Positions 8,009 to 9,349 of a stretch of DNA of 15,492 nt are shown here, one piece after another (the stretch's first letter is position 1; the number at the start of each line of letters is the position of its first letter). The notes under the pieces are model-generated. The model made no database searches. It saw only the letters and a program-made list of their open reading frames with translations, and had not been told where the DNA came from. Position numbers and translations under genes: made by a program. This DNA is from Raineyaceae bacterium. Its GTDB lineage: Bacteria; Bacteroidota; Bacteroidia; Cytophagales; Thermonemataceae. The stretch lies in contig JAYVGJ010000233.1 in the NCBI GenBank assembly GCA_043772375.1, positions 1 to 15,492 of the forward strand, written 5' to 3'.

Positions 8009-8413
8009 TTATTCAGAAGTTACTGTTATCTCTTCTCTTAGCTTCAAACCAATAGAATACCTTTCTAGTTCAACCCTATTGATATTTTCTAAGATAAAAT
8101 GGACTTTACCTAGTTCATTTATTGGTAGTGTTCCAAGTTGGATAATTACTTTACTTTTATTTTTTTCTCTAAAATCAACTTTAATCTGATTATCACTAAT
8201 TATATTTTCATTGTTGCAAATTTTTAAATGCAAAATTTGCGTACTATCATCATTAGTTTCTTTGTTTATGAAAGCAGCTACTGTTAGTCGTGGAATTAGT
8301 ATAGGAAAAGCCTCTGCCGTTATATCTTCCAAAATATTTATTATTGATAAATTGCCTGTTTCACTATCTCTAATGGCTCTATCTGCTACTAAAAGTGACT
8401 GTAAAGTTATCAT
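8009..8413 (-). CDS. Hypothetical protein (134 aa), third gene of the operon; no recognisable motif
   Basis: ORF whose start overlaps the stop of the upstream gene (ATGA overlap at 8410-8413); composition is protein-like. Confidence 0.6.
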   Translation of the reverse strand: MITLQSLLVADRAIRDSETGNLSIINILEDITAEAFPILIPRLTVAAFINKETNDDSTQILHLKICNNENIISDNQIKVDFREKNKSKVIIQLGTLPINELGKVHFILENINRVELERYSIGLKLREEITVTSE

Positions 8414-8838
8414 AATTCTATTTTTTGGGTGTTTCCTATTTCTGAACTCTCTATAAATTGTTTTCTGTTTTTAAAACTTTGCCCTAAGTCAGCAATTTTA
8501 AAAATTTCATACGGTTTTTGTCTGGCAAAATATATCTGTCTTAAATCTATAAACCATTCAAAATTTATAACACCTTGATTTTTAAGAAAATCAAATGTAG
8601 CATTATCATCTTTAAGAATAATAGCAACGTACAAAGAATATGCCGTTACTAACTCCTCCATTTTTTCAATTTCTATTTTTGCAATATCCAAAAAACTTTT
8701 AATCAATGAATTCGTAGTGTAATTTTGTGAAAGAAACAAAATACTTTCATTACTACTAAATTTATTTAGCAAGTAAGATGCCGTATTTGAAACTAAATAA
8801 ATTTCTTTAAGCTCTTCTATATCAATGTTATATTTCAT
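8410..8838 (-). CDS. Hypothetical protein (142 aa from MKYNIDIEEL), second gene of the operon
   Basis: Start chosen at the ATG at 8838, 8 bp after the stop (8828-8830) of the upstream gene; the ORF-track start at 8895 would overlap the upstream gene by 68 bp. Confidence 0.55.
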   Translation of the reverse strand: MKYNIDIEELKEIYLVSNTASYLLNKFSSNESILFLSQNYTTNSLIKSFLDIAKIEIEKMEELVTAYSLYVAIILKDDNATFDFLKNQGVINFEWFIDLRQIYFARQKPYEIFKIADLGQSFKNRKQFIESSEIGNTQKIEL

Positions 8839-9349
8839 ATTCTTTGTGTGATAATCTATAGAATTCAATAGTACAATTTTGGTATGGGCTATCATTCAAA
8901 TTATGAATTACCTCTCTAAATTTCCCCCACTTGCTGACTACAATTATACGAGAGATATTATTATCAGCGTGTTCTACGTTGGTAATGGTGGCAGAATGAG
9001 CAATGTCGCCATTTTCTGACGTAACATATAACGCTAAATCTCCTTCCAATGTTTGTTTTTGGCTGATTTTTTCATATCCGTCATCTAACAAAATTTTTCT
9101 TATCTCTGTAGATTTGTCAATGTTAGTTCTTCTGCTTGCAAATGACATTCCGTGACAATTATATTGAGGTGACGGACTTGTCCTAAATTTTGCTGATATA
9201 AATTTATCCTTTGAATAATCACAAAATTGGTTTCTTTCAAATTGAGAGATTTCAAATATTTGATAGTTATCTATAGGATTCCCTTTTGAGGTTTCTAATT
9301 TAATTTCTATCCTATTTTGCCCATTTATAAGTATAATTCCCATTATCAA
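8828..9349 (-). CDS. Predicted cytoplasmic papain-like hydrolase (NlpC/P60- or CHAP-like Cys-His fold), first gene of the operon
   Basis: 173 aa, no signal peptide. Motif order YNCHGMSF (resembles DCSG with the nucleophile Cys), about 40 aa gap, GDLALYV, 8 aa, AHSATITNVEH (resembles GDLVFF...HVGIYIG..IH of NlpC/P60). Family assignment is by pattern only. Confidence 0.45.
   Translation of the reverse strand: MIMGIILINGQNRIEIKLETSKGNPIDNYQIFEISQFERNQFCDYSKDKFISAKFRTSPSPQYNCHGMSFASRRTNIDKSTEIRKILLDDGYEKISQKQTLEGDLALYVTSENGDIAHSATITNVEHADNNISRIIVVSKWGKFREVIHNLNDSPYQNCTIEFYRLSHKEYEI

Follow-up and report, generated by a model that had tools for sequence, protein, structure and literature searches.

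What is the function of three small, closely packed genes that occur in the same arrangement in many distantly related bacteria? The question is raised by contig JAYVGJ010000233.1 of a Raineyaceae bacterium (assembly GCA_043772375.1; Bacteroidota, Cytophagales), whose positions 1 to 15,492 were analysed as one stretch and are hereafter called the window. The window is low-GC DNA (about 30–40% guanine plus cytosine, GC) that is Bacteroidota-like as judged by its genes and by related contigs, and between its extracytoplasmic function (ECF) sigma factor gene and a crotonase gene it carries three minus-strand genes, here termed A, B and C or, together, the trio. An initial annotation, made from the letters of the sequence, had described them as an operon led by a cytoplasmic Cys-His hydrolase and had speculated about a toxin-immunity or anti-phage role. 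The present analysis establishes that the trio is an obligate, self-contained and promiscuously transferred three-protein module with a predicted cytoplasmic papain-fold core enzyme. As to its function, the favoured reading is that of a horizontally mobile, self-contained conflict module, namely an anti-phage or abortive-infection system or a toxin-antitoxin-like addiction cassette, in which A would serve as the effector and B and C as regulators or sensors. A probability of roughly 45% is given to this reading, which makes the trio a plausible candidate, as yet unproven, for a new system of the defence or toxin type.

That A, B and C form a unit follows from their distribution. A pattern scan with one genome per species collected 49 loci from at least 15 phyla, the phyla and classes including Acidobacteriota, Planctomycetota, Ignavibacteria, Bacteroidota, several classes of Pseudomonadota, Nitrospirota, Chloroflexia, Actinomycetota and Verrucomicrobiota. 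As judged by hidden Markov models (HMMs) of the three proteins, 41 of these 49 genome loci contain A-B-C in the same order, on the same strand and tightly packed, and the set is complete in every complete metagenome locus. The initial annotation had named in advance what would speak against a three-gene unit, which was that homologues of the three never occur together in other genomes; the 41 loci show the opposite. The eight exceptions comprise five loci with diverged B- or C-like open reading frames (ORFs), two that are cut by contig ends, and a few decayed copies. That dozens of unrelated genomes share this order of three genes is far beyond what chance would produce. Furthermore, the pairwise distances of A, B and C correlate with one another (Mantel r 0.48–0.53, with none of 999 permutations as high), and A is far more conserved than its partners, with a mean pairwise identity of 0.40 compared to 0.21 (B) and 0.25 (C). 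When the neighbouring ORFs were all clustered, no fourth conserved gene emerged beside the trio, and the non-coding flanks, both upstream and downstream, show no conservation between loci.

Decay is seen in several cassettes (L055, 7728–8600; L026, 8818–9280; L030, 899–1417; and those of L059 and L098). In L055 the C-terminus of A is joined to a remnant of C and B is deleted, and what looks like an A-C fusion was rejected as a real fusion and assigned to decay, while in the other copies C or A is split, or B and C are truncated. Such copies suggest frequent loss, as expected of dispensable or costly accessory genes.

Base composition and genomic context both point to horizontal transfer. The position between the sigma factor and crotonase genes had been described as an accessory-looking slot, and this impression holds well beyond the window, since the GC content of the cassette lies below that of its flanks in 40 of 40 loci, by 9.5 points on average and by as much as 30 (Wilcoxon p = 3.6e-8). 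In the window itself the values are 0.286 for the cassette and 0.343 for the flanks. Some loci have IS256 or IS1595 transposases, a primase-like gene or an AAA_25 gene nearby, and in one locus an HNH endonuclease gene lies directly upstream of the trio. In another (L097, 4956–9605), a cargo of about 5 kb is placed between the membrane-fusion and pump genes of a resistance-nodulation-division (RND) efflux operon; besides the trio it contains an unknown protein of 460 aa and an AbiEii/AbiEi pair. In Rugamonas aquatica (L022; NZ_WHUG01000006.1, about 2500–16000), the trio is part of a stretch of reduced GC content, 13 kb or more in length, where the GC fraction is 0.40–0.62 and mostly about 0.45–0.55, compared to 0.63–0.68 to the left of it. 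An integrase gene directly precedes the trio in this stretch, and a Mrr-like nuclease and a complete ABC-3C system (DUF3732 ABC ATPase, MC3 and CTD7) follow downstream; the stretch also contains a KptA/Tpt1 RNA 2'-phosphotransferase and, weakly, a methyltransferase domain.

The trio was also found on two viral contigs of IMG/VR. One is a P2-like prophage (UViG_2893789372_000003) with P2-type portal and large-terminase genes on one strand, and its next ORFs, compared by size and order and not by a domain scan, resemble the O-N-M-L genes of P2. The trio and the portal gene are about 0.7 kb apart and are separated by a single small Zn-finger ORF, which places the trio on the gpQ side of the cos-proximal gpA–gpQ stretch; gpA itself was not found, as the contig ends. 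This stretch is a documented hotspot for anti-phage genes (PMC9122126). In the second viral contig the trio follows phage replication genes. With regard to the insertion itself, neither direct or inverted repeats on the flanks nor a tRNA or Rfam element marks a boundary around the trio. A metagenome scan with the neighbouring crotonase returned no "empty site", the closest relative being 52% identical and sharing no synteny, and the same scan showed that the trio is not linked to crotonase genes.

What kind of protein is A? Its sole match in Pfam is DUF7689 (PF24738), at 20.2 bits and hence below the cut-off of 22.6, and it reaches no gathering threshold of NLPC_P60 (PF00877), CHAP (PF05257), Amidase_6 or DUF7689. 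Pfam, NCBIfam, PADLOC and PHROGs provided nothing usable for either A or B, and sequence and profile searches of the PDB with A, B and C gave chance-level matches only. A profile search of 1.84 billion representative proteins collected 2974 clusters at E ≤ 1e-3 and 291 at E ≤ 1e-30; given this number of clusters and the lack of a Pfam model, A founds a large family that is absent from Pfam. When 77 diverse relatives of A were compared with Pfam, scattered weak matches were obtained (best E-values 4e-4 to 9e-3), mostly to the papain-like DUF7689, Amidase_6, CHAP, DUF1287 and NLPC_P60 families, with DUF7689 as the weak match for nine of the 77.

The residues conserved in A are those expected of a papain-like enzyme. 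The motifs YNCHGMSF, GDLALY and HSATI, on which the initial annotation had based its proposal, are all present in the translation. Cys65 is invariant in three alignments (18/18 close homologues, 77/77 diverse members and 55/55 sequences), and His118 is invariant in the first two and present in 54/55 sequences of the third. Asp104 is likewise invariant in the 18 and the 77 and found in 53/55, whereas the preceding Gly103 is invariant in the 18, at least 90% conserved in the 77, and found in 54/55. Over the 77 members, C65, G67, R74, D104, Y108, H118, K140 and H149 are invariant, and Y63, N64, H66, F70, A71, G103, S119, S139, W141, G142 and E146 nearly so. According to PMC10318531, the NlpC/P60-CHAP-amidase cluster has as its hallmark a GD motif on strand beta-1, to which Gly103-Asp104 of A conforms. 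An hhalign comparison of the A family profile with E. coli MepS, whose sequence was entered by hand, gave a pairwise E of 0.021 and placed NCHG on DCSG, GDLALY on GDLVLF and HSAT on HVGI, so that C65 and H118 fall on the catalytic Cys and His of MepS. The same comparison with the CHAP sequence LysK, also entered by hand, produced no meaningful alignment.

Structure prediction leads to the same superfamily. Foldseek searches with the model of A matched NlpC/P60/CHAP enzymes almost exclusively, with modest scores (E 0.02–0.1), and the model has a predicted local distance difference test (pLDDT) score below 50 at residues 64–67, that is, in the Cys loop. Like NlpC/P60 (MEROPS C40) and CHAP proteins such as MepS/Spr, B. 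cereus YkfC and the endolysin CHAP domain, which are its best structural and best weak profile matches, A has a papain-like alpha+beta fold, and the non-permuted order is shared as well, with the Cys at a helix start, Gly-Asp on the next strand and then the His. The assignment of A to the NlpC/P60-CHAP type with a conserved Cys and His, as originally proposed, is therefore upheld by profile, hhalign and fold matches. Unlike these enzymes, A has neither a signal peptide nor a cell-wall-binding domain, it carries an extra N-terminal segment of about 55 residues and an invariant RRT / SKWG / E..H signature, no third catalytic residue could be placed at the canonical position, and it is always encoded with two dedicated partner genes. 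The Glu125-His126 pair (EH), which had been offered as the third catalytic element, is conserved among the closest relatives only, and by conservation the candidates for the third triad residue are S139, K140, E146 and H149. We conclude that A belongs to the NlpC/P60-CHAP papain-like superfamily (Pfam clan CL0125), yet stands outside all families described there. Long members of the A family were considered as domain fusions and rejected, their starts being mis-called in high-GC genomes; shorter homologues begin directly at the conserved core.

The two partners had been described as resembling nothing recognisable, which remains true as far as known functions are concerned. No relative of B turned up in Pfam, NCBIfam, PADLOC, PHROGs or the PDB, whether the query was the single sequence or a 45-member set. 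The conserved features of B are limited to an (A/S)-N-T-P motif, Tyr67 and Trp95, its C-terminal third is a variable Ser/Thr/Asn-rich tail, and from the sequence pattern alone it may be read as helical. C, by comparison with the sub-threshold match of A to DUF7689, is a bona fide member of DUF6941 (PF22091), matching positions 2–111 of the 125-position profile at 44 bits against a cut-off of 27, and its homologues carry precomputed PF22091 annotation. Both of these Pfam families are of unknown function, and a full-text literature search for DUF6941, DUF7689 and their accessions found no mention of them. The model of C (pLDDT 73.5) is an immunoglobulin (Ig)-like/fibronectin type III (FnIII)-like beta-sandwich that matches generic accessory domains only, and few of its polar residues are conserved; neither B nor C looks like an enzyme. 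Consistent with the cytoplasmic location originally assumed for A, no signal peptide was found in A, B or C, nor any membrane segment, the highest 19-residue Kyte-Doolittle mean among them being 1.58. A also lacks any export signal, delivery domain or cell-wall-binding module, and no linkage to secretion or lysis genes was seen.

The layout of the three genes is compatible with joint expression from one transcript (Table 1). The number, strand, sizes and outer limits of the ORFs were correctly given in the initial annotation, as was the ATGA overlap of B and C at 8410–8413. Its 8-bp gap between A and B has to be replaced by an overlap, because the start of B (8838) lies 11 nt inside A, whose stop codon occupies 8828–8830, and the same 11-nt overlap is present in homologous loci. 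An alternative start of A at ATG 9343 yields 171 aa and is the one called on identical metagenome contigs. The palindromic terminator reported at 7972–8003 was recovered one nucleotide shorter, as a perfect hairpin with a 14-bp stem that includes 5 GC pairs and is followed by a U-run; it folds at -19.8 kcal/mol (z = -6.4), and none of 200 shuffled sequences folds as well. The upstream insulation that had also been claimed was not found. The 89-bp spacer contains no terminator-like site and no recognisable promoter, as sought in the form of the Bacteroidetes-type -7 box TAnnTTTG on the coding strand, and read-through from the crotonase gene is therefore possible. Two antisense ORFs, 7953–8189(+) and 8211–8456(+), were rejected as genes, since they overlap the conserved frames of C and B.

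Table 1. Coordinates of the trio, its predicted catalytic codons and its flanking signals in the window.
Feature	Position	Strand	Description
Gene A	8828..9349	-	173 aa from TTG 9349; predicted cytoplasmic papain-fold Cys-His enzyme, NlpC/P60-CHAP superfamily
Gene B	8410..8838	-	142 aa orphan, acidic (pI 4.9); gene calls in identical contigs
Gene C	8009..8413	-	134 aa, Pfam DUF6941, all-beta Ig-like/FnIII-like sandwich
Cys65 codon	9155..9157	-	Predicted nucleophile, within invariant Y-N-C-H-G
His118 codon	8996..8998	-	Predicted general base, downstream of the Gly103-Asp104 motif
Intrinsic-terminator-like palindromic hairpin	7972..8002		Operon end; T-runs on both strands
Spacer, crotonase stop to gene A start	9350..9438	-	89 bp; sequence unlike other loci

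How might such a module work? According to the proposed mechanism, a single translationally coupled mRNA would yield A, B and C in fixed proportion, and the three proteins would act together in the cytoplasm. A would be the effector hydrolase, in which His118 activates the thiol of Cys65 for attack on an amide bond of the peptide, isopeptide or gamma-glutamyl type, while an anionic substrate would be held by the invariant cluster of Arg73, Arg74 and Lys140. These basic residues suggest an anionic substrate in the first place, for which the stem peptides of peptidoglycan precursors, gamma-glutamyl amides or a protein target are possible candidates. B and C, in which no catalytic signature is seen and whose rate of evolution is double that of A, could serve as regulators, sensors or neutralisers that hold A in an inactive state until it is triggered, for example by infection or loss of the cassette. 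The analysis shows the gene structure, the conservation of the trio as a unit, the fold class of A with its conserved Cys, GD and His, the non-enzymatic look of B and C, horizontal transfer and the cytoplasmic location; complex formation, the class of substrate, the toxic or protective nature of A, and the sensing roles are inferred.

A conflict system fits best with an obligate and transferred three-protein module that has a conserved Cys-His core and fast-evolving, non-enzymatic-looking partners. The trio resembles compact defence and abortive-infection cassettes, such as the P2 old/tin locus, AbiE and ABC-3C, in being a short, self-contained, low-GC and promiscuously transferred operon, and some of its copies lie near P2-like gpQ, AbiE, HNH, Mrr or ABC-3C genes. 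Unlike the known cassettes, its proteins have no sequence relation to known defence proteins, and defence genes are found nearby in a minority of loci. A more specific form of the idea, which we regard as doubtful, is that the trio is an unrecognised anti-phage (abortive-infection) system whose effector, a cytoplasmic NlpC/P60-type amidase, would attack either peptidoglycan precursors from within the cell (UDP-MurNAc-peptide or the stem peptides of lipid II) or a protein of host or phage, with B and C as sensor and inhibitor. A literature search on NlpC combined with defence or abortive infection found no report of an NlpC/P60-type amidase as a defence effector. The trio, the A family and the B family are not described by any library model or paper searched, and what appears to be new is a family within a known enzyme superfamily, set in a conserved three-gene architecture.

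Several observations weigh against a conflict module. Locus L048 is the sole one with an apparently intact A and neither B nor C, which argues against constitutive toxicity of A. Among the 150 nearest neighbours of the trio no family recurs more than four times, and the defence-type genes among them amount to two mads, two MkoA-like genes and two kinases; being few and non-recurring, they make the association with defence islands anecdotal rather than statistical. A, B and C have no match among the 5027 models of PADLOC (PADLOC-DB v2, E ≤ 1). The trio occurs in only two of 2.9 million viral contigs, in none of 50,697 phage genomes, and in one weak plasmid match. In the window itself the trio has housekeeping neighbours, genes of this kind there encoding RNase E/G, an arginase-family enzyme, BPL, RsfS, Cmk, the ECF sigma factor, crotonase and MarC, and the third catalytic residue of A could not be located at the canonical place. 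The toxin-immunity or anti-phage idea of the initial annotation is thus suggested by the copies that lie in defence or mobile contexts, while the lack of a recurrent neighbour family and of a PADLOC match speaks against it.

Other explanations account for parts of the same evidence. The trio might be an accessory metabolic or salvage module without any conflict role, in which A would be an amidase of the cytoplasm with a small molecule or peptide as its substrate, for instance a gamma-glutamyl or murein-peptide-type amide in the manner of YkfC-like endopeptidases or glutathionylspermidine amidase, while B and C would serve as substrate-binding or stabilising subunits. We hold this to be rather unlikely, since no metabolic gene, transporter or regulator is ever conserved beside the trio, which is sporadically spread over at least 15 phyla with a GC content below that of the flanks in every locus, travels with transposases, an integrase and a prophage, and contains two proteins, B and C, whose very fast divergence is unusual for metabolic subunits. 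A different doubt concerns the chemistry of A, which may not be a hydrolase at all. Cys65-His66, His118, Glu146 and His149 could bind a metal or another ligand, or A could be an LRAT/PLAAT- or transglutaminase-type transferase in a small structural or regulatory complex. The invariant set does contain many classic metal ligands (C, H, H, E, H), PLAAT4 and the non-catalytic RipD are among the structural matches, and both the failure to locate a canonical third triad residue and the uncertain Cys loop of the model would be in keeping with such a role. It seems improbable all the same, as the Cys, GD and His of A fall, in the right order, on the catalytic residues of MepS, and complete papain-like cores that lack the third triad residue are known, e.g., in Amidase_6 (PMC10318531).

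The mobile contexts and the small partner genes invite two further readings. Serving a mobile element as cargo, through anti-defence, superinfection exclusion or the maintenance of prophages or integrative elements, would agree with the two viral contigs, in which the trio lies by a P2-like portal gene or after phage replication genes, and with the integrase and transposases that adjoin it in several loci. This explanation is quite improbable in light of the scarcity of the trio among viral, phage and plasmid sequences given above, and most copies are chromosomal with no element genes nearby. Alternatively, the trio could be an interbacterial toxin-immunity set in which A is exported and attacks peptidoglycan as an amidase or peptidase of the Tae/Tse1 type, with B, C or both conferring immunity. 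The structural matches of A include Tae3, Tse1 and the papain-like toxin/immunity pair 9l5u, and in the Tae/Tai and Tse1/Tsi1 pairs of the type VI secretion system (T6SS), as in 9l5u, a small NlpC/P60-like enzyme likewise adjoins small partners, so that the genes next to A recall immunity genes. The loci examined, however, contain no signal peptide, PAAR, VgrG, Rhs or secretion-linked gene and no delivery domain. Immunity to a cell-wall amidase should be periplasmic, whereas B and C have no signal peptides and are predicted to be cytoplasmic; there are two obligatory partners instead of one; and the hosts have very different envelopes, including those of Actinomycetota and Chloroflexia, a phyletic range far beyond that of T6SS-bearing bacteria. 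Taken together, these features render an exported toxin very improbable.

If the trio is a defence or addiction module, it would bring new effector chemistry to bacterial immunity, in the form of a papain-fold amidase that acts in the cytoplasm, and it would provide a function for DUF6941, for the orphan B family and for a hydrolase family of about 3000 clusters that is absent from Pfam. Even a metabolic trio would represent a compact and very widely transferred three-protein unit. The cassette of 1.34 kb is easily cloned, and the predicted active-site residues are pinpointed for mutagenesis.

Elsewhere in the window, an 829-aa protein encoded at 11838–14327 (-) has the shoulder domain (PF11978, 3.8e-28) and vault-repeat domains (PF17795, 1.3e-06) of the eukaryote-type Major Vault Protein. 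The gene of this bacterial homologue adjoins MarC and DUF4890 genes and is also present on identical metagenome contigs. Tandem arrays of heptamers occupy intergenic positions 277–307, 4416–4446, 5208–5232, 5467–5498 and 11797–11831. The heptamer ATTCACA / AATTCAC, in 4.4 copies, closely precedes the RNase E/G gene as well as rsfS, AGTTGTG forms two arrays and TTCGTAC is present in 5 copies; regulatory or phase-variable repeats are a possible interpretation. Repeats also occur within or next to coding regions. A 6-nt/24-nt tandem repeat at 3645–3697, in the BPL/BirA-like gene 3381–4229 (-), encodes an Ala/Ser/Asn-rich low-complexity insertion, ATNASASASANASVDATAN, in a protein of the biotin/lipoate ligase family. 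At 5605–5730, the longest cmk ORF starts from a far-upstream TTG and crosses a perfect 15-nt repeat of 2.5 copies (5674–5710), which encodes NNYYTNNYYTN; the internal ATG (MKKLIIALDG…) is probably where cmk really begins, in which case the repeat would be 5'-untranslated.

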